The position numbers and the translations under genes are program-made. A stretch of 42,110 nucleotides of DNA, from IMG/VR virus record IMGVR_UViG_3300048914_000085. One strand, written 5' to 3'. The notes under the pieces are model-generated. The model ran no database searches, had not been told where the DNA came from, and was given only the letters and a program-made list of their open reading frames with translations. Below are positions 901-42,110 of this stretch, one piece after another; position 1 is the stretch's first letter, and every line of letters begins with the position of its first letter. This DNA comes from a virus.

Positions 901-1148
901 CACAGCTTCCCCCACTCGCGCGCGGCAAACCGGATCACCGGGCCGATCAGGCCTTCCCATGCATCCCGAAGCCGAAGGGCAACGCTTCGGCGCGGTTTGC
1001 CGCGACCGCAGGCACTCGCCCGGAACGAAACCCAGCCGTCCGCGTCAACCTTATGGCAAGTTGTGCAGTGCCAGGTGAGCAGGGAGCAAGAGGCACCTAC
1101 CACACCGGTGAGAATCACACCTGACCAGTCCAAGACTTGCCCCCTCAA
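900..1148 (-). CDS. Hypothetical protein with an N-terminal hydrophobic segment and a Cys-rich region (82 aa, TTG start in the track)
   Basis: The stop is coupled (TGATG) to the next gene. Product has WSGVILTGVVGASCSLLTW then HCTTCHKV...ACGRGKP. The start codon is uncertain: TTG with no clear SD. Confidence 0.4.
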   Translation of the reverse strand: MRGQVLDWSGVILTGVVGASCSLLTWHCTTCHKVDADGWVSFRASACGRGKPRRSVALRLRDAWEGLIGPVIRFAAREWGKL

Positions 1149-1196
1149 GTTAGTGTTGTGCGCCCCGATCCCGCAGGGCGCGGATATACAGTTCAG

Positions 1197-1424
1197 CTAT
1201 GCGGCCCGTTGTGGGGTGGAGGTGTCTGCGTCAGGGCGCTTGCGAGAAGCGCTTGATGCCAGTTCCTCCAGCGTTGACAGGTCAGCCTGCGCAATCTCCA
1301 GCCACAGGTCGGCGGGAATGCTGTCGCGCTGGTCCCACGAACGGACGGTGGTAATGGGCCGTCCAGTCAGCGAGGCGATCCGATCGTGACCAGCGTCGCG
1401 CAAAATGTCTCGGTGGGTTCTCAT
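1197..1424 (-). CDS. Cro-like small HTH regulator (75 aa from Met6 of the track ORF)
   Basis: RIASLTGRPITTVRSWDQRDSIPADLW resembles Cro/YdaS-type HTH proteins. The gene is divergent from the CI-like gene. ATG 1422-1424 lies exactly 7 nt downstream of a -10-like CATAAC. The alternative ATG at 1439 lies inside the promoter spacer. Confidence 0.6.
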   Translation of the reverse strand: MRTHRDILRDAGHDRIASLTGRPITTVRSWDQRDSIPADLWLEIAQADLSTLEELASSASRKRPDADTSTPQRAA

Positions 1425-1430
1425 GCTCAC

Positions 1431-1459
1431 GTTATGCATTTTGCGTCACGGGAATGCAA
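1431..1459 (-). promoter_or_regulatory. Leftward early promoter with operator (TTGCAT - 17 nt - CATAAC on the minus strand)
   Basis: Reverse complement of 1454-1459 is TTGCAT. The spacer is 17 nt. Reverse complement of 1431-1436 is CATAAC. The 19-mer gtgacgcaaaatgcataac (reverse complement of 1431-1449) recurs exactly at 2967-2985. Confidence 0.5.
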
Positions 1460-1496
1460 GCGCCTTTTGCATAATGCGGTTAGCTATGCTGGAGGC

Positions 1497-1826
1497 ATGG
1501 ACAAAGCCTCGGAACGACTTCGCATCGCCCGACTGCGGGCCGGATTTGAGACCGCCAAGGACGCCGCCGAAGCGATGGGCGTTCCTGTTTCCACATATTT
1601 AGGCCATGAGAACGGAAACCGGGGGTACCCCGCAAAGAAGGCCGAGCTTTACGCGCGCAAGTTCAAGGTGCGCGAGCAATGGCTGCTCTACGGTGTCGGG
1701 GAGGGCCCAGGCGACAACGGCGACCAGAAAGCCGAGATCATCAACATCATCGATCACTTGCCGCCCCTCAAGAGGGCAGAGGCGCTCGGGTATTTGCGTG
1801 GCCTCTCACGGGGCACCAACGCGTGA
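1497..1826 (+). CDS. XRE-family CI-like repressor, HTH only with no S24 peptidase domain (109 aa)
   Basis: MDKASERLRIARLRAGFETAKDAAEAMGVPVSTYLGHENGNRGYP is a classic HTH_XRE. The gene is divergent from the Cro-like gene. Track ORF 1386..1826 trimmed to Met38. Confidence 0.8.
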   Translation: MDKASERLRIARLRAGFETAKDAAEAMGVPVSTYLGHENGNRGYPAKKAELYARKFKVREQWLLYGVGEGPGDNGDQKAEIINIIDHLPPLKRAEALGYLRGLSRGTNA

Positions 1827-1845
1827 TCTGGATAGGGAGGCGGAT

Positions 1846-2118
1846 GTGACGCCGTACGAATGGGGCAAAATAGTGGGCACATCCTTGGGGATGGGCTTCC
1901 TCTTGATCCCGACGCACTGGATTGCCGTCAAGACGATCAAAGATCGGCCCGCCGCTCTCGCGGTGGCATGGGGGATAATCTGGATCTCGTTCGCATGGGT
2001 GCTGGGGCAGCCCGACCCACTTGCCCTGTCGCTCGCCCGTTCGATCCCTGCGGCGCTGATCGGTGGGCTGGTGATGTTCGGAGTTGCCCGTCGCATTCGC
2101 AAGAACCCCACCCCCTGA
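1846..2118 (+). CDS. Small integral membrane protein, about 3 TM segments (90 aa, GTG start)
   Basis: GTG 1846 sits 5 nt after GGGAGG (1835-1840) and just after the repressor stop. Hydrophobic stretches IVGTSLGMGFLLIPTHWIAV, AALAVAWGIIWISFAWVLG and SIPAALIGGLVMFGVA. Confidence 0.6.
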   Translation: MTPYEWGKIVGTSLGMGFLLIPTHWIAVKTIKDRPAALAVAWGIIWISFAWVLGQPDPLALSLARSIPAALIGGLVMFGVARRIRKNPTP

Positions 2119-2142
2119 CCAGCTGGGTGCGAGGGAGAGATT

Positions 2143-2358
2143 ATGAGTTTAGAGCATATGAATCTGCCGGCCACCAAGGGTGACATTGCGTTTGTCGCGG
2201 CCCATGCCTCGCTGGCGGTGCGTATCCTCTCCTCGGCCATCTTGGCTGCTTCTAGCGGAGACCGGGCCGAGTGCGCGGAGCAACTCAGAGAGGCAGGGAA
2301 GCAGGCGGACGAATTGTACGCCACGTTCAAGAGCTTGATCGGCGATGCCAATGACTAA
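2143..2358 (+). CDS. Hypothetical small helical protein (71 aa)
   Basis: ATG preceded by GGGAGAG. It overlaps the next gene. Confidence 0.6.
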   Translation: MSLEHMNLPATKGDIAFVAAHASLAVRILSSAILAASSGDRAECAEQLREAGKQADELYATFKSLIGDAND

Positions 2359-2815
2359 CGGCGCGATCGATGTCGGGTTACTGCAAGCTCAGTACGAACG
2401 TGTCCGGGCCGAGAACGAGCGCTTGAAATCCGGCAGGGGAGGTGGCACCTCTGGTGGTATGGATACGGTTGACGCCAAAATCGCTGCGGCTGAGGCGAGG
2501 ACGGACACCAAGTTCGCCGAGCTGCAAGGCAGCATCAAGCTGGAATTCGCAGAGCTTCGCGGCAATCTTACCCACTTGCAGAGCGCGGTCGACGGGAAGC
2601 CTGGTTTATGGGCCTTGGTCGCGACGGTAGCTACGGGAGCTGCCGGAATTATCGGAATTATACTGGCGGTGCTGGCGTTTGGCGGCGATCGCTTCGATGC
2701 GGGCCTAGGCCTTTCTGGGCAGCAGCAGGCGCAGGAACAGCACGATGCCAAGCAGGACGAGGCACTGCAGGGCATCGGCGCCAAACTCGATAGGCTGATA
2801 GAACGCACCCACTGA
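2345..2815 (+). CDS. Coiled-coil protein with a single TM segment (156 aa)
   Basis: Heptad-like AKIAAAEARTDTKFAELQGSIKLEFAELRGNLTHLQ, then LWALVATVATGAAGIIGIILAVLAF. ATG 2345 (or 2351) overlaps the upstream stop. Confidence 0.65.
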   Translation: MPMTNGAIDVGLLQAQYERVRAENERLKSGRGGGTSGGMDTVDAKIAAAEARTDTKFAELQGSIKLEFAELRGNLTHLQSAVDGKPGLWALVATVATGAAGIIGIILAVLAFGGDRFDAGLGLSGQQQAQEQHDAKQDEALQGIGAKLDRLIERTH

Positions 2816-2843
2816 GTCGGTCCGTCTCCCCGGACCACTGGAG

Positions 2844-2875
2844 CCGCCTCGGGCAACCGGGGCGGTTTTCGTTTT
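2844..2875 (+). terminator. Rho-independent terminator closing the repressor operon
   Basis: ccgcctcgg / gcaa / ccggggcgg forms a 9-bp stem with one G-U pair and a GCAA loop, followed by ttttcgtttt. Confidence 0.8.
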
Positions 2876-2945
2876 CCTACACGCTAGGCGATGGCGCAGA
2901 TTGCACAGGTGATTCGCGACCATGATGCTTTTTCGCGAAAATAAT

Positions 2946-2985
2946 GCAAAATGCATTTGACATACTGTGACGCAAAATGCATAAC
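2946..2985 (+). promoter_or_regulatory. Rightward early promoter (TTGACA 2957-2962, 17 nt, CATAAC 2980-2985) with two copies of the operator core GCAAAATGCAT (2946-2956, 2972-2982)
   Basis: Consensus -35, 17-nt spacer, and the same -10 plus 19-mer as the leftward promoter. The two operator cores are 26 bp apart. Confidence 0.55.
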
Positions 2986-3031
2986 CCTCCTATCAGCCGG
3001 GACAAACCAACCCCGGCGCTAGGAGGTCCAG

Positions 3032-3199
3032 ATGACTTACCCCACCGGATCGATCGCCGCTCTGCTCGCAGAGAAGGGCATCACCCTCGGCACCAGCGAG
3101 AACGGCCATAAGGAGCTGTTCCGTGAAGGTGTGTCGCTTGGCTGGTTCAACGCCAACACGGCGGTCAACCGCTTCCTCCCCGAACACCGGGGGGCTTGA
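3032..3199 (+). CDS. Hypothetical protein, first gene of the rightward operon (55 aa)
   Basis: ATG 3032 sits 5 nt after AGGAGG (3021-3026). Product MTYPTGSIAALLAEKGITLGTSENGHKELFREGVSLGWFNANTAVNRFLPEHRGA. Found by hand, below the track cutoff. Confidence 0.55.
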   Translation: MTYPTGSIAALLAEKGITLGTSENGHKELFREGVSLGWFNANTAVNRFLPEHRGA

Positions 3200-3202
3200 G
3201 CC

Positions 3203-3496
3203 ATGGCCCTAGACATCCTCACCCCAGACCAGCTCGCCAAGGTCCGCGATGCCGCGCTGCGCAAGGCTGACTGGTATGAAGCCCGCCCCGTAAGCACCAC
3301 TGGACAGGTCGGCTTCTTTCAAAAGCAGACCCGTGACAAGCTGGTGCGCGGCCTGCGCCACACCGCTGCCGACTGCCAAGCGGCAATCGACGGCTGCGAG
3401 ACTTCGATGGACTCGGTTCTGGTTGAACTGGACGAGGACGGCGATCTGGCCCGCGCAGCCTACTCGTATGTTCCGGCGATGGGAGCGGCAGCATGA
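3203..3496 (+). CDS. Hypothetical protein (97 aa)
   Basis: Track ORF with balanced composition. ATGA-coupled to the next gene. Confidence 0.6.
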   Translation: MALDILTPDQLAKVRDAALRKADWYEARPVSTTGQVGFFQKQTRDKLVRGLRHTAADCQAAIDGCETSMDSVLVELDEDGDLARAAYSYVPAMGAAA

Positions 3497-4629: not shown

Positions 4630-4781
4630 CCAGCGCCCGCTTCTACCACACCCACCGCCCCAGCCTTGTGAGTGCTCCTGTTGCTCCGATGGATGGAGAG
4701 ACGGAGCGCTTCTGGACCCTCCGCAAGCAGGGCGTCCCCACCACCAGCGAATACCTCCAGATGAAGGGACTTTCGAAGTGA
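4626..4781 (+). CDS. Small hypothetical protein (51 aa)
   Basis: ATGA overlap upstream and GTGA overlap with the erf start downstream. Found by hand. Confidence 0.4.
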   Translation: MTSARFYHTHRPSLVSAPVAPMDGETERFWTLRKQGVPTTSEYLQMKGLSK

Positions 4782-5482
4782 CAGCCCAGTCCAAAATTGA
4801 GCCCGCGCCGCCGCAGTCGGTCTATGCCAAGATTGCCGCCGTGCAGGGCGCGCTTGCCAGCACCGGCATCGGCAAGGACCGCACCAATTCAACGCCCGGC
4901 GCGAACTACCGTTTCCGGGGCATCGATGACGTTTACAACGCCTTGGCCCCGCTGCTCGCCACGCATGGCCTGTGCATCCTGCCCCGCGTCGTGGCGCATA
5001 CCCTGACCGAGCGTGGCAAGACCAAGAACGGCAACGCGATCTTTTCCGCCGTGGTCGATGCTGAGTTCGATTTCGTCTCGGCGGATGACGGTTCGTGCCA
5101 TGTGATCCGCACGGTGGGCGAGGCGATGGACAGCAGCGACAAGGCCACCAACAAGGCGATGAGCGCGGCTTACAAATACGCAGCGTTCATGGCGTTTGCT
5201 ATCCCGACTGAGGGCGATAACGACGCCGACGCCAATACGCACGAAGTCGCCGTTGCGCCGGATGCCATGCCGGATAGCGAATGGGCGAAACTGGTCCAGC
5301 TTGTCGAGGCCACCAGCGCGAACGTCCCGGCAATGCTCAAGTACCTCAACGTGCGGGTGCCGGGTGACAACCTGCGCCTACTCAATCCCGATCAGTACAC
5401 GAAGGTGCTGGACGCCCTCAATGACAAGCTGGCGAAGATGGCGAAGGCCGAAACCGACGCCAAGGCGAAGGAGCCCGCATAA
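4778..5482 (+). CDS. erf: ERF-family single-strand annealing protein (234 aa, GTG start)
   Basis: YRFRGIDDVYNALAPLLATHG ... DSSDKATNKAMSAAYKYA are ERF superfamily motifs. Track ORF 4553..5482 trimmed to the in-frame GTG 4778. Confidence 0.75.
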   Translation: MTAQSKIEPAPPQSVYAKIAAVQGALASTGIGKDRTNSTPGANYRFRGIDDVYNALAPLLATHGLCILPRVVAHTLTERGKTKNGNAIFSAVVDAEFDFVSADDGSCHVIRTVGEAMDSSDKATNKAMSAAYKYAAFMAFAIPTEGDNDADANTHEVAVAPDAMPDSEWAKLVQLVEATSANVPAMLKYLNVRVPGDNLRLLNPDQYTKVLDALNDKLAKMAKAETDAKAKEPA

Positions 5483-6108
5483 TGGACCAGCGCAGCCCCG
5501 AATGGTTCGCAGAGCGGGCCGGGAAAGTCACCGCCTCTTGCGTGTACAAGGTCATGGCCCGCACCAAGACCGGATACGGCGCAGACCGCGCCAACTATCA
5601 CGCCCAGCTTGTCACCGAGCGCCTGACCGGACTTCCGGCGGACAGTTTCAGCAACGCCGCGATGCAGTGGGGCACTGACACCGAGCCCCAGGCGCGCGCT
5701 GCCTACGAATTTCACACCGGGCGCGATGTGGTCGAGATGGGTTTTGCCCCGCACCCGGAGATAACGATGGCCGGGGCTTCGCCTGACGGGCTGGTCGGAT
5801 CGGCCGGGCTGATCGAGATCAAGTGCCCGAACAGCGCGACCCACATCACTACCCTGCGCGGAGCTGAGATCGACCGCAAGTATCTCCTGCAAATGCAGTT
5901 CCAGATGGCCTGCACAGCGCGAGACTGGTGCGATTTCGTGTCGTTCGATCCGCGCCTGCCGCGCGAGATGCAGTTGCATATCCGCAGGGTTGAGCGGGAC
6001 GACGCGCTACTCAGCGAAATTCATGGCGAGGTGGCCAAATTCCTCGCCGAAGTTGATGAAGCCGTGGCGGACCTTCGCACGCGGTACATGACCAAGGAAG
6101 CCGCATAA
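5482..6108 (+). CDS. YqaJ-type (lambda-exonuclease-like, PD-(D/E)XK) recombination exonuclease
   Basis: RSPEWFAERAGKVTAS, SPDG and EIKCP motifs. The gene lies directly after erf. Confidence 0.75.
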   Translation: MDQRSPEWFAERAGKVTASCVYKVMARTKTGYGADRANYHAQLVTERLTGLPADSFSNAAMQWGTDTEPQARAAYEFHTGRDVVEMGFAPHPEITMAGASPDGLVGSAGLIEIKCPNSATHITTLRGAEIDRKYLLQMQFQMACTARDWCDFVSFDPRLPREMQLHIRRVERDDALLSEIHGEVAKFLAEVDEAVADLRTRYMTKEAA

Positions 6109-7151: not shown

Positions 7152-7424
7152 ATGACCGATAGCCAACAACAGGGCTGGAGAAACATCGCCAGCGCGGAAG
7201 ACATTGCCTTCACGCGATGGTTCACGGAAATCGAGGTCTTCTCTCACCGCTGCGAGAGGTTCGCCGATGAATGCCATCTCGACGATGCGGTCCATCAGAT
7301 CGCCCGCAACTGGCTGCGCGCCGCATTTCAGGAAGGGTTCGAAGCCGGGCGCAAGTCCAACCCCCATATTTCCTCACCTAGAGCAACGGGGGGGAGCGAT
7401 GACAGCTCACACCATCGCCTCTAA
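7152..7424 (+). CDS. Hypothetical protein (90 aa)
   Basis: ATG sits 4 nt after GAGGTGA. Confidence 0.55.
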   Translation: MTDSQQQGWRNIASAEDIAFTRWFTEIEVFSHRCERFADECHLDDAVHQIARNWLRAAFQEGFEAGRKSNPHISSPRATGGSDDSSHHRL

Positions 7425-7680
7425 GTTCCGCCGCGCCCTGCGCAACGGCACCGGGGCCAGCTTCACGCAGGACCAATTGCGAGAACTGGCCGACTACGGC
7501 GTGCTGAAAACGCTCGCCCTGATTGAAGCCGAGGAACTATGCCCCGCGAAACCAGCCCCTACGTCCGCGACCCCTATTGGCTCGACTACCGCCGCGACGG
7601 CAAAGCCCCAGGCATCTGGCAAATCGCGCGCAATGAGCGAGGGTCGGTCCTTTATCGCAGCACTCGCAAGCGGGATGTAG
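7399..7680 (+). CDS. Hypothetical protein upstream of int (93 aa). Its 3' 142 nt overlap int.
   Basis: ATG 7399 follows GGGGGGAG. The N-terminal half (MTAHTIASKFRRALRNGTGASFTQDQLRELADYGVLKTLALIEAEEL) looks genuine. The C-terminal tail is low-complexity and lies in an alternative frame of int. An excisionase role is only a positional guess. Confidence 0.4.
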   Translation: MTAHTIASKFRRALRNGTGASFTQDQLRELADYGVLKTLALIEAEELCPAKPAPTSATPIGSTTAATAKPQASGKSRAMSEGRSFIAALASGM

Positions 7681-8747
7681 GAGAGGCCATTGCCGCCCTT
7701 GACGCCCATGCCGAGGAACTGCGCTCCAAGCAGCGCCAGTTACCCCATGAAGCCTTGGCTGCGGCACATCTGGTCAACTACTGGAAGGAACACGGTCGCA
7801 AACTGGTCAACGCCGACCAGACCGGGCGCAGCCTACGGACGTTCCTCGCCTTTCTCATTCAGGACGAAGTGGGCGCGCAGGCGGTGATTACCGACCTGAC
7901 CCCAGTCCTGTTCGAGCGGTTCCGCGAGTGGCGCATGGGGCCGCACGCGTTCTCTCTGGAATGGTTCGGAACGACGTTCGATTATTCCAGCCAAGGTGTT
8001 GCCGGGGCCACCGTGCAGCGGAACGTCAACGACGTGCGGGCCGCGATTTATCACGCGCAGGCCAACATGCGCATTCCGATGGCACCGAAGATCCGCGACC
8101 TCGGGGAGAAATACAAATCCCCGCCGCGCGAACGGGTGCTGTCCTTTGCGGAGTTGGGGCAAATTGCCTGGTATGCCAAGCACAACCCCGACCTGTTCCG
8201 GTTCATTGCCTTGCAGATCGGCACCGCAGTTAGGCCGATGGCCGCACTGGCGTTCGATCCGCGCCGCCAGTTCGATCCGCGCACTGGCCTGATTGACCTA
8301 CAGCCGACCGAGGCCAAGCAGACCAAGAAGCGCAACGCGATCATCCCGGCAATCCGCCCGCTGCGCACGGTCCTCAAGGCATGGGCGCGCGACGGGGCCA
8401 AGCCGGTGGACAGCCGCAAGACCGCATGGCGGATCATGCGCCGCACCCTCGGCCTGACCAGCGACGTGTTCCCCAAGACCATCCGGCACACCGTGGCGAC
8501 GATGCTCTACGCCGACCCGACCGTGCCCGAGCGCGAGATCGTGGAACTGCTCGGCCATGAGGGCAAGCTGGCCCGCACGACGCGCATCTACGCGAAGTAT
8601 GACCCAGCCCGGATGCAGAACGTGACCCGCAGCCTGACCACCATCTGGCAGCAAGTGACTCGGGAAGCGCGGAAATTCGGGACTGACCATCGACTGACCA
8701 CGACGGGGCAGGGTGGAAAGAATATTGTTGTCGATGAATCCCGGTGA
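7539..8747 (+). CDS. int: Tyrosine recombinase / phage integrase (402 aa)
   Basis: C-terminal catalytic-domain pattern (RPMAAL ... IRHTVATML ... LLGHEG ... RIYAKY). The gene ends 26 nt from the tRNA-fragment attP. Confidence 0.85.
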   Translation: MPRETSPYVRDPYWLDYRRDGKAPGIWQIARNERGSVLYRSTRKRDVGEAIAALDAHAEELRSKQRQLPHEALAAAHLVNYWKEHGRKLVNADQTGRSLRTFLAFLIQDEVGAQAVITDLTPVLFERFREWRMGPHAFSLEWFGTTFDYSSQGVAGATVQRNVNDVRAAIYHAQANMRIPMAPKIRDLGEKYKSPPRERVLSFAELGQIAWYAKHNPDLFRFIALQIGTAVRPMAALAFDPRRQFDPRTGLIDLQPTEAKQTKKRNAIIPAIRPLRTVLKAWARDGAKPVDSRKTAWRIMRRTLGLTSDVFPKTIRHTVATMLYADPTVPEREIVELLGHEGKLARTTRIYAKYDPARMQNVTRSLTTIWQQVTREARKFGTDHRLTTTGQGGKNIVVDESR

Positions 8748-13668: not shown

Positions 13669-14837
13669 CAACATCCCACGCCGTTCAGCGTCACCCCCGA
13701 CTTGACCGGCGAGGCGTTCAGCGTTCCGAGGCACTGCTTGACCATCGTCCCCGTGACCTTCGCCCCGTTGATCGTCACCCCGGAAATGCCCCCGGTGTAG
13801 TTCAGCACGCGGAAAGCGGTGACCGTGTTCGGATTGGTGATCGTGGTGTTCGCAATCGAGACGTTCGTCACACTCTTGAGATCGGTGAACACCATGACCG
13901 CGGCGTGGTCGATGTCAGTCCGGGTCCGCACGCCATCCAGCACGTTGTCGCGCAGGTCGATGCTATCCACCGCGCCCGTGCCCCAGCCCGAGATCGAAGC
14001 AACGCGGATTGCGGAAACCCCGGTGCGGGTCAGCTTGTTGCGGTACGCTTGTCCGCCACTGGTGCCCTCGAACGACACGCCAGAGGCGGCGCCATCGCTG
14101 CACACGTTGTCGAGGAACTGCACGTTGCGATTGATCCCCGTCCCGTAGCCGATCGAGGCAAAGCAGTCGTCACCCGCGTTCAGCGCGGTGTTGAACTGCG
14201 CCAGCACGTTGGACGTGCCGGTGAAGTGGAACGCATCGGCCAGCGAGCCATCGACCAGGCTGTTGGTCACCGTCGCCCCGGTCGAGTTGTAGTAGAGAAT
14301 GCCAGCGCCTGCGACCTTGCGAACGGCCACGCTGTCGATCGCGACGTTACTCGCGGTGTCAACGTAGATCCCGCGCGACAGGCCGTCCGTGGTGCGGGCC
14401 GTGGCATTGGCGGTGACGGTGAAGCCCTTGAGCGTCACCCCACTACCCCCGGCAACGATGACCGAGGACAACAGCGGGTTGAGCGCCTTGAGGACCGTCA
14501 CGTCCTTGCCCGCACCCTGGATGGTGACGTTGGTCTTGCCCGAGATGCGCAGGTTCGTGGAATAGGCACAGGTTGCGGCGGGCAGGGTGGTGTTCCCGGC
14601 GTTGAACGCGGCCTGCAGGGCGGCGGTGTCGTCTATGCCCTTGCAAGTCAGTGAGGCGGTCGGGACCGGCGCAGGTGTGGGAGCGGGGGTGGGCGTAGGG
14701 GTTGGCGTCGGAGCAGGAGCGGGCAGCGCGGCTTTGACGGCCTGCGCGTCGGCAATCAGCCGGTCCACCAGTTCGGGGAGCGTCTGCGCCGCAGCAGCGG
14801 TCGGGGCAAGGGCGAGCAGGATGGCGAGGCGCTTCAT
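13668..14837 (-). CDS. Secreted right-handed beta-helix polysaccharide depolymerase-like protein (389 aa) with a Sec signal peptide and a Pro/Thr linker
   Basis: Track ORF trimmed to MKRLAILLALAPTAAAAQ (GGAGA SD, ATGA overlap with the spanin stop). PAPAPTPTPTPTPAPTPAPVPT linker. The beta-helix region is paralogous to 34863..36356 (HFTG..AQFN..GDDCFASIGYG..FLDN..ASGVSFEGTSGG..NPNT). Confidence 0.65.
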   Translation of the reverse strand: MKRLAILLALAPTAAAAQTLPELVDRLIADAQAVKAALPAPAPTPTPTPTPAPTPAPVPTASLTCKGIDDTAALQAAFNAGNTTLPAATCAYSTNLRISGKTNVTIQGAGKDVTVLKALNPLLSSVIVAGGSGVTLKGFTVTANATARTTDGLSRGIYVDTASNVAIDSVAVRKVAGAGILYYNSTGATVTNSLVDGSLADAFHFTGTSNVLAQFNTALNAGDDCFASIGYGTGINRNVQFLDNVCSDGAASGVSFEGTSGGQAYRNKLTRTGVSAIRVASISGWGTGAVDSIDLRDNVLDGVRTRTDIDHAAVMVFTDLKSVTNVSIANTTITNPNTVTAFRVLNYTGGISGVTINGAKVTGTMVKQCLGTLNASPVKSGVTLNGVGC

Positions 14838-15319
14838 GGTTGGTCTCCGGTGATGGATAGGGCCCAATCGCGGCAGGCTAGGCCGAAGGATTGCCACTCG
14901 GCGGCGGCGCGCACGTCGCGCTCGTCCACGACAATGCCGGTGGACAGGTCCGCAGGAACGGGGGCAGGACTGGCTTGACCGATGGGCTCGGCGGGGCCGC
15001 TATGACCCTGGGGCTGCACGCGGTGCTGGCGAATAAAAGCATCAGTAGCAGCACGAGCGCTGGCAAGATCATCAATGTGTCGCCGATCGGCTTCGGCAGC
15101 TTGATGCGCATAGGTCGTCCTTTCCTGTGTCCGGAGCGCTTCCTGTGCCCGCTGGGCGGCCTGTGAGGCTTGCTGGCAGGCGTCCGCCCTCTGGTGCCAC
15201 TTGTGGGCGTCATGGCGCTGGTAGAGCCCCCACAGGGCCAGCAGGGCGATTGCGAGGAGCAGGGGATTGGCCTTGATCCAGCGCCAGACGGGCAGGAGAC
15301 GAGCGAGCAGCAGCATCAT
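14834..15319 (-). CDS. i-spanin (Rz-like), 161 aa
   Basis: N-terminal TM segment (ANPLLLAIALLALWGLY), a coiled-coil middle, and position after the endolysin and holin-like gene. Trimmed to the MM at 15319. Confidence 0.65.
   Translation of the reverse strand: MMLLLARLLPVWRWIKANPLLLAIALLALWGLYQRHDAHKWHQRADACQQASQAAQRAQEALRTQERTTYAHQAAEADRRHIDDLASARAATDAFIRQHRVQPQGHSGPAEPIGQASPAPVPADLSTGIVVDERDVRAAAEWQSFGLACRDWALSITGDQP
14878..15111 (-). CDS. o-spanin (Rz1-like lipoprotein) fully embedded in the i-spanin gene in another frame (77 aa)
   Basis: MRIKLPKPIGDTLMILPALVLLLMLLFASTAC followed by a Pro-rich mature part. AGGAAAGGA SD upstream of ATG 15111. The lipobox (STA-C) is imperfect. Confidence 0.55.
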   Translation of the reverse strand: MRIKLPKPIGDTLMILPALVLLLMLLFASTACSPRVIAAPPSPSVKPVLPPFLRTCPPALSWTSATCAPPPSGNPSA

Positions 15320-15567
15320 CCCGCACCTTCGTTCTGGGCCTTGGCGACCTGCCGATCCTTGAGTGCAATCGCGCCTGCCGCCGCACCGAGACACGCCGCA
15401 AGTCCCGCCGGATAGGCGATGCAGAACGTGTCGAAGGTAACCGTAACCTTACCTGTCCAGACCAGCGCCGGGGCTGTCACGATATAGGTGGTGGTGCCGA
15501 GTGCGCCGAGAATGCGGCCGATTTCGAATTCACCGGAGATGCCGCGAAGGGCGTTCATGATGCTCAT
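15316..15567 (-). CDS. Holin-like two-TM membrane protein (83 aa)
   Basis: ATGA overlaps with the endolysin stop and the i-spanin start. TM candidates IGRILGALGTTTYIVTAPALVW and FCIAYPAGLAACLGAAAGAIAL. Confidence 0.5.
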   Translation of the reverse strand: MSIMNALRGISGEFEIGRILGALGTTTYIVTAPALVWTGKVTVTFDTFCIAYPAGLAACLGAAAGAIALKDRQVAKAQNEGAG

Positions 15568-15998
15568 GCGTCTGCTCCATAGAGCGCGGCTTCGGCGGCG
15601 CGGCGGCGGGTGAGGCCGGGCAGCACGCGGCCACCAGCCTTGTCCCATCGGGCGAACTGCGCCTGCGCAGCGGCGTATTGCCCCGCGTTGTGCAGGCGGC
15701 GCAGCGTGGAGTTTTCGAGGTTGTGCAGGCCGAGGTTGTAGGCGAACGAGACCAGCGCCGAGAACTGATTGGGGGTGCAGGTCGGGCACAGGCCGGCAAC
15801 ACCTTGTTCGAACAGCCGCAGGTCGTTGATCAGGAAGCCCTCGGCCTGGTCCTGGGTGATCGTCATGCCCATCTGCACGTCGCGGCCCGTGTGGCCGTAG
15901 CCGATGGTCGGAACGCCTGCGGGGCAGAGATACGCCTTGAGCTTGCATCCCTCGAACTGGCGGATGAGGTCAACGCCCGGCCTGTTCGTGCGCATCAT
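15564..15998 (-). CDS. GH24 lysozyme-type endolysin (144 aa), soluble with no SAR segment
   Basis: DLIRQFEGCKLKAYLCPAGVPTIGYGHT contains the E-x8-(D/C)-x5-T catalytic pattern of T4/P21-type lysozymes. Track ORF trimmed to the MM at 15998. Confidence 0.8.
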   Translation of the reverse strand: MMRTNRPGVDLIRQFEGCKLKAYLCPAGVPTIGYGHTGRDVQMGMTITQDQAEGFLINDLRLFEQGVAGLCPTCTPNQFSALVSFAYNLGLHNLENSTLRRLHNAGQYAAAQAQFARWDKAGGRVLPGLTRRRAAEAALYGADA

Positions 15999-16168
15999 CC
16001 CTGCCCCCCGATCCGCATTGCCAGAGATTGCAAATCGTAGGGCACCGGCTCGACCGGGTAGGCGAGGCGCAAGCGCTGGGTCATCAGGCACCGCTCGGTG
16101 CATATCTCCATCAGCCGGTGGACAGCCTCGGTGCGTTGCTCGAGCGCGGCCTTGCCATCAGCGCACAT
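15995..16168 (-). CDS. Small hypothetical lysis-cassette protein (57 aa)
   Basis: Hand translation MCADGKAALEQRTEAVHRLMEICTERCLMTQRLRLAYPVEPVPYDLQSLAMRIGGQG. GAAAGG SD. ATGA overlap with the endolysin start. Confidence 0.45.
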   Translation of the reverse strand: MCADGKAALEQRTEAVHRLMEICTERCLMTQRLRLAYPVEPVPYDLQSLAMRIGGQG

Positions 16169-16337
16169 GGTTGAGCCTTTCGGAAAGCTGGGTGAGGGCT
16201 TTCGCCATCTCGATGTCAGCGGCCGTGCGGGCGGCGTCGAGCTTGTCGCGGGTGGTCTGGTTCCACACCAGGTAGCCGACGAACGGCCCCGCCATGCCGA
16301 ACTGCTTCGCGAATTCGATGATGTCAGTCCAAGTCAC
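16158..16337 (-). CDS. Small lysis-cassette protein (59 aa, GTG start)
   Basis: GTGA overlap with the upstream stop. Product VTWTDIIEFAKQFGMAGPFVGYLVWNQTTRDKLDAARTAADIEMAKALTQLSERLNHVR. Confidence 0.45.
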   Translation of the reverse strand: MTWTDIIEFAKQFGMAGPFVGYLVWNQTTRDKLDAARTAADIEMAKALTQLSERLNHVR

Positions 16338-41965: not shown

Positions 41966-42110
41966 TGCACGGCTCCCCGGTGGCGATCGGCTTCCGCCAC
42001 GACCGCGCCGAGCTGGTGAAGCAGCGGGCGGATGGCCTCGGCTAGCGCCAGCGTCTCCACATGATCGCGCTTTCCGTCCGCGAGGGCTTCGGTCCACTGG
42101 CCGGCGAGGT
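41962..42110 (-). CDS. C-terminal end of the junction-spanning HTH protein (same CDS as 1..443)
   Basis: The frame from 443 continues through the repeat to TGA 41962-41964 (...AEADRHRGAVQ*). Confidence 0.7.
   Translation of the reverse strand, partial: LAGQWTEALADGKRDHVETLALAEAIRPLLHQLGAVVAEADRHRGAVQ
41984..42110. repeat. Terminal direct repeat, identical to 1..127
   Basis: Exact 127-nt identity with the window start. Confidence 0.95.

Follow-up and report, generated by a model that had tools for sequence, protein, structure and literature searches.

A repressor-linked gene pair encoding a predicted membrane-anchored coiled-coil protein and a small partner in an alphaproteobacterial temperate phage, a candidate analogue of lambda RexAB

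Prophage genes that are expressed together with the repressor have proved to be a source of phage-exclusion systems. To our knowledge, almost all characterised repressor-linked exclusion systems come from enterobacteria, pseudomonads, lactic acid bacteria and mycobacteria. In lambda, the annotated order is cro, OR/PRM, cI-rexA-rexB, OL/PL. The mycobacteriophages Sbash (PMC6426596) and Butters (PMC7542560) each encode a lysogenically expressed two-gene defence that includes a membrane protein, gp30/gp31, proposed to act by loss of membrane potential or by interaction of the two proteins (PMC6426596, PMC7542560). Here we analyse the IMG/VR virus record IMGVR_UViG_3300048914_000085, a contig of 42,110 nucleotides (nt) whose whole length is referred to as the window. 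Its CI-like repressor gene is followed on the same strand by three small genes, encoding proteins of 90, 71 and 156 amino acids (aa) designated w90, w71 and T (w156). We tentatively read T and its small upstream partner as a lysogen-expressed two-part inner-membrane module for phage exclusion or abortive infection, in which T would be the effector and the partner its modulator; we put the probability of this reading at roughly 0.4.

The window resembles lambda in that same-strand genes lie behind the repressor, between two operator/promoter regions and beside the promoter equivalent to PL. As with RexA/RexB, the pair combines a cytoplasmic and a membrane component, and expression in the lysogen is expected here. 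The preliminary description of this DNA had already assigned the genes to a cI-rexA-rexB-like position, in agreement with the lambda annotation, with 17 of 19 viral contigs described below and with the bounded cassettes of four relatives. Homology to RexA and RexB is, however, excluded. The PADLOC models of both proteins gave no match to w90, w71 or T at E <= 1, while the lambda controls were recovered at 9e-110 (RexA) and 9e-61 (RexB), and hhalign against RexA and RexB returned probabilities below 1%. The proteins also differ in size and build. RexA has 279 aa against 71 aa for w71; RexB has 144 aa and is polytopic, commonly described with four transmembrane (TM) helices, whereas T is predicted to be single-pass, and w90 has two to three hydrophobic helices but no similarity to RexB.

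Positions 1431-2985 constitute the immunity cassette of the phage (Table 1). The cassette is bounded by a 45-nt inverted repeat whose arms pair with 80% complementarity. A 13-nt palindrome, ATGCAAAATGCAT (ATGCA-AAA-TGCAT), searched for over the whole window with up to two mismatches, is confined to these two arms, and each of the two outward-facing promoters overlaps copies of it. The left promoter is predicted to drive a cro-like helix-turn-helix (HTH) gene and the right one the early operon that includes Erf and YqaJ. The four plus-strand genes between these promoters follow one another at 19 nt, at 24 nt and, for w71 and T, with an overlap of 8-14 nt; all have a coding-type distribution of G+C over the three codon positions (GC1 > GC2 < GC3), with GC3 of 0.68-0.77. 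The unit ends in a hairpin that spans 2840-2869 and leads into a U tract. Its folding free energy (dG) is -28.8 kcal/mol (z = -4.8), and none of 200 shuffled sequences folded equally well. This hairpin is the sole plus-strand terminator within 1000-3400, and none lies inside the repressor unit. The preliminary description, which had proposed two early promoters with a shared operator, a repressor, three same-strand genes and a strong intrinsic terminator at 2844-2875, is thus upheld to within a few bases.

No confident promoter was found for the repressor unit by a consensus scan that also failed on both evident early promoters. A repressor-side promoter would transcribe CI, w90, w71 and T as a single unit up to the terminator. 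Given the structure of this unit and the operator-bounded cassettes of relatives, co-expression with the repressor is a reasonable expectation, and all four proteins would be made in the lysogen.

Table 1. Coordinates of the features discussed, in positions of the window
Feature	Position	Strand	Evidence and remarks
T (w156), 156 aa, predicted single-pass membrane-anchored coiled-coil protein	2345-2815 (Joint Genome Institute (JGI) start 2351)	+	homologues, alignment, model, hydropathy
w71, 71 aa, acidic predicted helical-hairpin protein	2143-2358	+	isoelectric point (pI) 4.9; N-terminal motif PATKGDV; 3' end overlaps T start
w90, 90 aa, basic predicted membrane protein	GTG 1846-2118	+	Shine-Dalgarno (SD) sequence GGGAGG 1836-1841; GC3 0.77; pI 11
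CI-like HTH repressor, 109 aa, without S24 peptidase domain	1497-1826	+	phrog_2328 at 7e-11
Out-of-frame relic of S24 repressor end (VIWIGRRM-stop)	1823-1849	+	last 8 codons and stop; tblastn
Left operator/promoter arm	1431-1475	- (promoter)	TTGCAT 1459-1454, 17-nt spacer, CATAAC 1436-1431; operators 1434-1446 and 1460-1472
Right operator/promoter arm	2941-2985	+ (promoter)	TTGACA 2957-2962, 17-nt spacer, CATAAC 2980-2985; operators 2944-2956 and 2970-2982
Intrinsic terminator of the repressor unit	2840-2879	+	hairpin 2840-2869 (13-bp stem), then U tract
Cro-like small HTH gene, divergent from repressor	1197-1439	-	NCBIfam carph-isopro domain 8e-7; weak Phage_CI_repr match
First gene of the rightward early operon (runs on to Erf and YqaJ), outside the cassette	3032-3199	+	open reading frame (ORF) with AGGAGG SD
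Erf	4778-5482	+	Pfam ERF
YqaJ	5482-6108	+	Pfam YqaJ
Integrase candidate, 402 aa	7539-8747		weak sub-threshold Phage_integrase match in C-terminal part, E = 1.9e-4
Lysozyme	15564-15998	-	Pfam 3e-46

The alignment of T with its homologues begins with a variable N-terminal helix, a Gly-rich linker and a near-invariant helix, M-D-x-V-DAKIAAAEARTDTKFAEL. Next come a coiled-coil insert that varies in length and a hydrophobic helix rich in Gly and Ala; the motif AFGGDRFDAG then leads into a C-terminal helix. Hydropathy analysis identifies one strong hydrophobic helix at residues 91-109, within a TM helix rich in small residues (88-113). The AlphaFold model is all-helical (H10-28, H36-83 and H88-155), with a mean predicted local distance difference test score (pLDDT) of 80 and a predicted template modelling score (pTM) of 0.36. 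The lack of a signal peptide, the hydrophilic N-terminal domain of about 90 residues and the single hydrophobic helix suggest an inner-membrane protein in N-in, C-out orientation. T would probably form oligomers through its coiled coil and the small-residue TM helix.

The word-indexed search recovered 131 relatives of T, and a profile search extended the family to 1,368 clusters at 50% identity (E <= 1e-3), of which 516 remained at E <= 1e-10. All named records are annotated as "hypothetical protein". T belongs to a large and unnamed family, and its pairing with a small helical protein is widespread. Scans of w90, w71 and T with Pfam, PHROGs, PADLOC and NCBIfam gave only noise-level matches. 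When relatives of T were scanned, Pfam produced scattered coiled-coil noise only (50, then 127 proteins) and PHROGs gave no match (50 proteins). T had no match in a profile search against the PDB, and neither did its model in Foldseek against the PDB and BFVD at E <= 0.001. No similarity to toxin families was found in Pfam, PADLOC or NCBIfam, and the superinfection-exclusion (Sie) families represented in PHROGs and Pfam, among them SieA, Sie2009, gp15 and Imm, matched neither w90, w71 and T nor 50 homologues of T. At the nucleotide level, tblastn (E <= 1e-3) found no match for two T proteins among 50,697 GenBank phage records and none for one T protein among PLSDB plasmids, and blastn of the region against phages was likewise negative.

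The nearest approach to a known family is one of architecture. Like T, XhlA (PF10779) and CCDC90-like proteins (PF07798) have a coiled coil in the N-terminal part and then a single TM helix close to the C-terminus. The matches are sub-threshold (E of 1e-3 to 1e-2) and limited to 2-4 of 50 and 2-3 of 127 T relatives, with none for the window T itself. T also differs from these proteins in that a further helix, about 40 residues long, follows its TM segment, and it shows no association with lysis genes.

Immediately upstream of T, w71 is predicted to fold, from its single sequence, into a two-helix hairpin (H12-38 and H41-70, pLDDT 85). Its word-indexed search returned only its own record; relatives were instead found by local iterative searches across the fetched T loci. 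These yielded 13 homologues sharing the motif PATKGDV, all immediately upstream of a T gene and, in every case inspected, overlapping the T start. A degenerate DNA pattern for PATKGDV gave mainly chance matches and three true partners, two of them on known contigs, where each is followed by T, and a third at the edge of a locus. w71 and T form a conserved overlapping pair, which would be the functional core. No DNA-binding fold was found in w71 by Pfam, in the predicted model or by Foldseek against the PDB, where only generic matches (E > 1) were returned.

Other T genes are preceded by other small partners, and wherever a partner is present it overlaps T in each locus seen. Besides the w71 type (13 loci), the classes directly upstream include helical proteins of about 106 aa (L031, L039), at least four groups of zinc-ribbon proteins (L004/L022; L032-L040; L009; L013) and several others. 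In L015, L017, L019 and L043 T has no small partner, and in L043 it overlaps the repressor stop codon. The N-terminal helix of T is only partially associated with the w71-type partner. Partner families vary while the T core is near-invariant, a pattern expected for a constant effector with a variable adaptor.

The third gene of the unit stands apart from this pair. Hydropathy of w90 shows three hydrophobic segments, two of them strong and one weaker. Its GTG start is supported by relatives, which use the same junction of repressor stop and next-gene start, and by a relic of such a junction in the window; the JGI call begins at ATG 1891 and gives 75 aa. Among 5.8 billion proteins the word-indexed search found only the record of w90 itself, and none of 46 related loci carries a relative. 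We also considered w90 as a decayed S24 domain and rejected this, as the eight surviving codons of the old repressor lie upstream and overlap the w90 start. The slot behind the repressor is occupied elsewhere by two lipoproteins (L001 3858-4740), a 99-aa two-TM protein (L045 5450-5749) or an 80-aa ORF (L026 5362-5604). Different small envelope genes behind the repressor in relatives point to a variable moron slot, and w90 would accordingly be a lineage-specific extra membrane gene outside the conserved module.

For the three proteins, the preliminary description had given about three TM segments with a GTG 1846 start and GGGAGG SD (w90), a helical 71-aa protein and a 156-aa coiled-coil protein with one TM segment, all without a recognisable family. 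The features above agree with each of these assignments, and Pfam, PHROG, PADLOC, NCBIfam, PDB and Foldseek searches bear out the lack of a family. Its treatment of the three genes as one module holds for w71 and T, a conserved pair, but not for w90, an orphan in a variable slot. Its view of them as a prophage gene set fits the position of T behind repressors in phages, but T also occurs at non-prophage sites.

The distribution of T was followed with the T profile in species-representative genomes (20 loci) and in viral contigs (21 loci), with extra loci added through exact-protein look-ups. The viral contigs contain 19 distinct T genes. In 15 of the 19, a same-strand repressor homologue lies no more than 3.5 kb upstream of T, and in 13 of these the distance is within 1.2 kb. 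Pfam, which detected HTH and/or Peptidase_S24 above cutoff in 10 of 10 tested genes upstream of T, recovered two loci that the local search had missed (L027, L039) and brought the count to 17 of 19. These repressors are of several kinds, comprising two S24 groups and short XRE proteins, and T recurs behind them in temperate phages of Sphingomonadales and Rhizobiales. In L013, L028, L035 and L036, inverted repeats with a TTGAC box flank the repressor, the optional partner, T and a gene for a HIRAN-domain protein. L033 has a run of four overlapping genes ahead of a terminator, encoding CI, a 64-aa protein, a 118-aa zinc-ribbon protein and T. On the viral contig L027 an ORF composed almost wholly of GGRV/GGTV repeats (7162-7746) lies about 850 nt downstream of T.

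The stand-alone HIRAN-domain gene is found 3' of T in sphingomonad relatives (L001 5424-5822, L009 3468-3872, L013 6332-6727, L028 6423-6812, L035 6435-6626, L036 6396-6776 and L045 6444-6875) and is absent from the window. Its start overlaps or abuts the T stop in five of these seven loci; L013 is uncertain and L036 has a gap of 66 nt. The operator-bounded cassette includes it in all four relatives with visible bounds (L013, L028, L035, L036). The HIRAN protein may be a third component of the module, e.g., a sensor of DNA ends.

Chromosomal sites give a different picture. A genome scan with a search motif, covering representative genomes for 185,579 species, confirmed at least 20 loci, and a repressor precedes T in only 2 of the 20 species-representative loci. 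T is thus a sporadic and not a core gene, and its rarity among species representatives argues against a housekeeping role. A w71-T pair follows a nitronate monooxygenase gene in Sphingomonas adhaesiva, and in Rhizobium a zinc-ribbon-T pair is flanked by uvrB and pcm. In two Sphingomonadales metagenome-assembled genomes (MAGs) a w71-T pair (L007 5772-6420; L008 2178-2833) is inserted between genes which we take, from recognised sequence signatures, to be ctaE and surf1 of the cytochrome c oxidase cluster. Just past surf1 in L007, a protein of about 970 aa begins with a type IIG-like motif and is presumably the member that matches the PADLOC type IIG models. In L003 the w71-T pair overlaps the preceding gene, and two Brucella-group species (L015, L017) show synteny at the T locus. 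An Acetobacteraceae MAG (L023) carries two tandem T paralogues, at 364-897 and 1179-1691. T occurs at both prophage and chromosomal sites, and is mobile between them.

In the arrangement that we propose, T would sit in the inner membrane with its coiled-coil N-terminal part of about 90 residues facing the cytoplasm, one Gly/Ala-rich helix crossing the membrane and a further helix, of some 40 residues, lying outside. The small cytoplasmic partner, translationally coupled to T and exchangeable between lineages, would most likely bind T and control or target it. A signal from a superinfecting phage would act through the partner, in some relatives possibly through the HIRAN protein, and release T, which would then perturb the membrane or block a membrane step of infection. 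A two-part exclusion or abortive-infection module best accommodates four features taken together: the near-invariance of the membrane protein, its swappable partner, the sporadic and mobile distribution and the hard-wired link with the repressor; the suggested fit of T itself derives from its position, architecture and sporadic distribution. In logic, w71-T may be compared with lambda RexAB and with gp30/31 of Sbash (PMC6426596) and Butters (PMC7542560). The latter belong to unrelated hosts, consist of unrelated proteins and have an experimentally determined function, whereas their likeness to w71-T is one of description and function here is inferred.

Several observations weigh against this proposal. 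The proposed function is deduced from sequence, the topology and oligomerisation of T are predictions, and the pTM of the model, given above, is low. No homology or fold match links the proteins to a known defence, Sie, toxin or holin family in the libraries, the PDB or Foldseek. T stands without a partner in the four loci named above, which argues that it is not an obligatorily neutralised toxin. Proteins engaged in an arms race seldom show conservation as strong as that of the cytoplasmic helix of T. Finally, the chromosomal neighbours of T are mainly housekeeping genes: 147 neighbours at 17 loci include one type IIG restriction-modification enzyme, one Pycsar pair and three integrases, so that no clear enrichment of defence genes is apparent. 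The Pycsar pair, a PycC cyclase with PycTIR, belongs to one of the loci among L004-L025 and is no more than 6 kb away from a chromosomal T.

T might also act alone in superinfection exclusion, blocking DNA entry as SieA does (PMC10883804) without killing the cell, its partner being dispensable or a stabiliser. We consider this unlikely, although a small protein of inner-membrane type positioned for co-expression with the repressor, the partnerless T genes of some loci including L043 and the conserved segment AFGGDRFDAG just outside the membrane would all suit such a role. About 90 of the 156 residues of T, including its most conserved helix, are predicted to be cytoplasmic, and a translationally coupled partner is the rule. 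The inner-membrane exclusion proteins P22 SieA, HK97 gp15 and Tuc2009 Sie2009 are, by contrast, encoded by single genes with no coupled partner, and SieA has three TM helices against one in T. Known Sie proteins diverge fast, whereas the T core is near-invariant across orders and T as a whole is far more conserved than is usual for them; it also matches no Sie family in PHROGs.

Ranked after it, and also improbable in our view, is a role in lysogenic conversion or membrane physiology rather than defence, with T a borrowed cellular tail-anchored coiled-coil protein serving in envelope stress, ribosome or protein tethering, or the control of prophage induction. The non-phage chromosomal sites, with the Brucella-group synteny and housekeeping neighbours, speak for this idea, as do the very strong conservation of the cytoplasmic helix and the tail-anchored, coiled-coil-like architecture with sub-threshold CCDC90-like and XhlA matches in a few members. 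Such a role accords poorly, however, with a gene that is rare and patchy among species representatives, whose link to phage repressors spans different repressor families and whose upstream partner varies.

A toxin-antitoxin-like addiction pair, with T as membrane toxin and the upstream protein as antitoxin, stabilising the prophage or other recipient DNA and contributing to phage defence only secondarily, seems to us quite improbable. The layout is that of a type II system, with small adjacent genes and the w71 stop at 2358 overlapping the T start at 2345/2351. The overlap of a small acidic protein gene with a larger downstream one, the mixing and matching of different partner families with T and the sporadic, mobile distribution, including insertion in housekeeping operons, are in line with it. 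On the other hand, w71 has no detectable DNA-binding fold, T resembles no toxin family of Pfam, PADLOC or NCBIfam and occurs solo in several genomes, and in several contexts, such as the overlap with the preceding gene in L003, the pair has no promoter of its own.

A part in the lysis machinery, as a holin, antiholin or spanin-like set, can practically be dismissed: the proteins are small and membrane-associated and a few family members show weak XhlA-like matches, but these are sub-threshold and limited to 2 of 50 and 2 of 127 members, the cassette sits in a terminator-ended repressor unit behind operators, and a separate lysis cluster with small membrane ORFs surrounds the lysozyme gene. T was rejected as a lysis-cassette member on this last ground, and the comparison with lysis families gave no homology above threshold.

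The repressor itself has a history of rearrangement, as far as its sequence indicates. Its Pfam HTH matches fall below cutoff, and its HTH is 45% identical to that of the S24 repressor of L033, from a Rhizobiales prophage. An HTH is present and the Peptidase_S24 domain of LexA/CI-type repressors is not, whereas relatives carry the full domain. Just behind the gene, the out-of-frame relic of an S24 repressor end is identical to the repressors of relatives in 7-8 of 8 residues (tblastn), and its TGA overlaps the GTG start of w90 (GTGA). This relic indicates an internal deletion in the CI gene, and the protein is a deletion derivative of a LexA/CI-type S24 repressor that kept the HTH and lost the autocleavage domain. 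With this domain lost, the phage may not be inducible through RecA-mediated cleavage. On the opposite side of the left arm, the leftward -10 element (1436-1431) ends 6 nt ahead of ATG 1424, which puts the predicted transcription start at about 1424. The cro-like mRNA is therefore probably leaderless, and the gene probably starts at ATG 1424, giving 75 aa instead of 80 aa.

The window has 63.5% G+C, and by an exact direct repeat of 127 nt at its ends (1-127 = 41984-42110) the contig can be recognised as a complete genome, circular and about 41,983 bp in length; it looks like a complete circular temperate phage of an alphaproteobacterium. The leftward operon crosses the window start and runs into minus-strand genes at the far end. 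The 402-aa protein listed in Table 1 is the sole integrase candidate seen. The minus-strand block at about 13.7-42 kb, where the scan covered the lysozyme and a beta-helix protein only, presumably holds the structural genes. The likely lysis cluster (14834-16337, minus strand) comprises the lysozyme gene and ORFs of 83 aa, 161 aa (with an N-terminal hydrophobic segment) and 59 aa; these small ORFs of the cluster had no family matches.

In its broadest form, which we consider doubtful, the proposal would make T with its exchangeable partner a new, widespread alphaproteobacterial anti-phage system: a single-pass coiled-coil effector armed by swappable small sensors, to which sphingomonad phages add a coupled HIRAN DNA-end-binding protein, hard-wired in the repressor operon as a non-homologous analogue of RexAB. 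T represents a new large protein family (>1,300 clusters at 50% identity), unannotated in all libraries tested, in a well-known genomic niche, and in temperate phages of alphaproteobacteria it is tightly and repeatedly linked to several repressor types. The combination of a constant membrane protein and a variable partner offers a clear and cheap experimental handle. If T is not a defence effector, its placement behind the repressor still indicates a function linked to lysogeny. If it is, a new Rex-like mechanism would be added, and a common "hypothetical" gene of Sphingomonas and Rhizobiales prophages would be explained.

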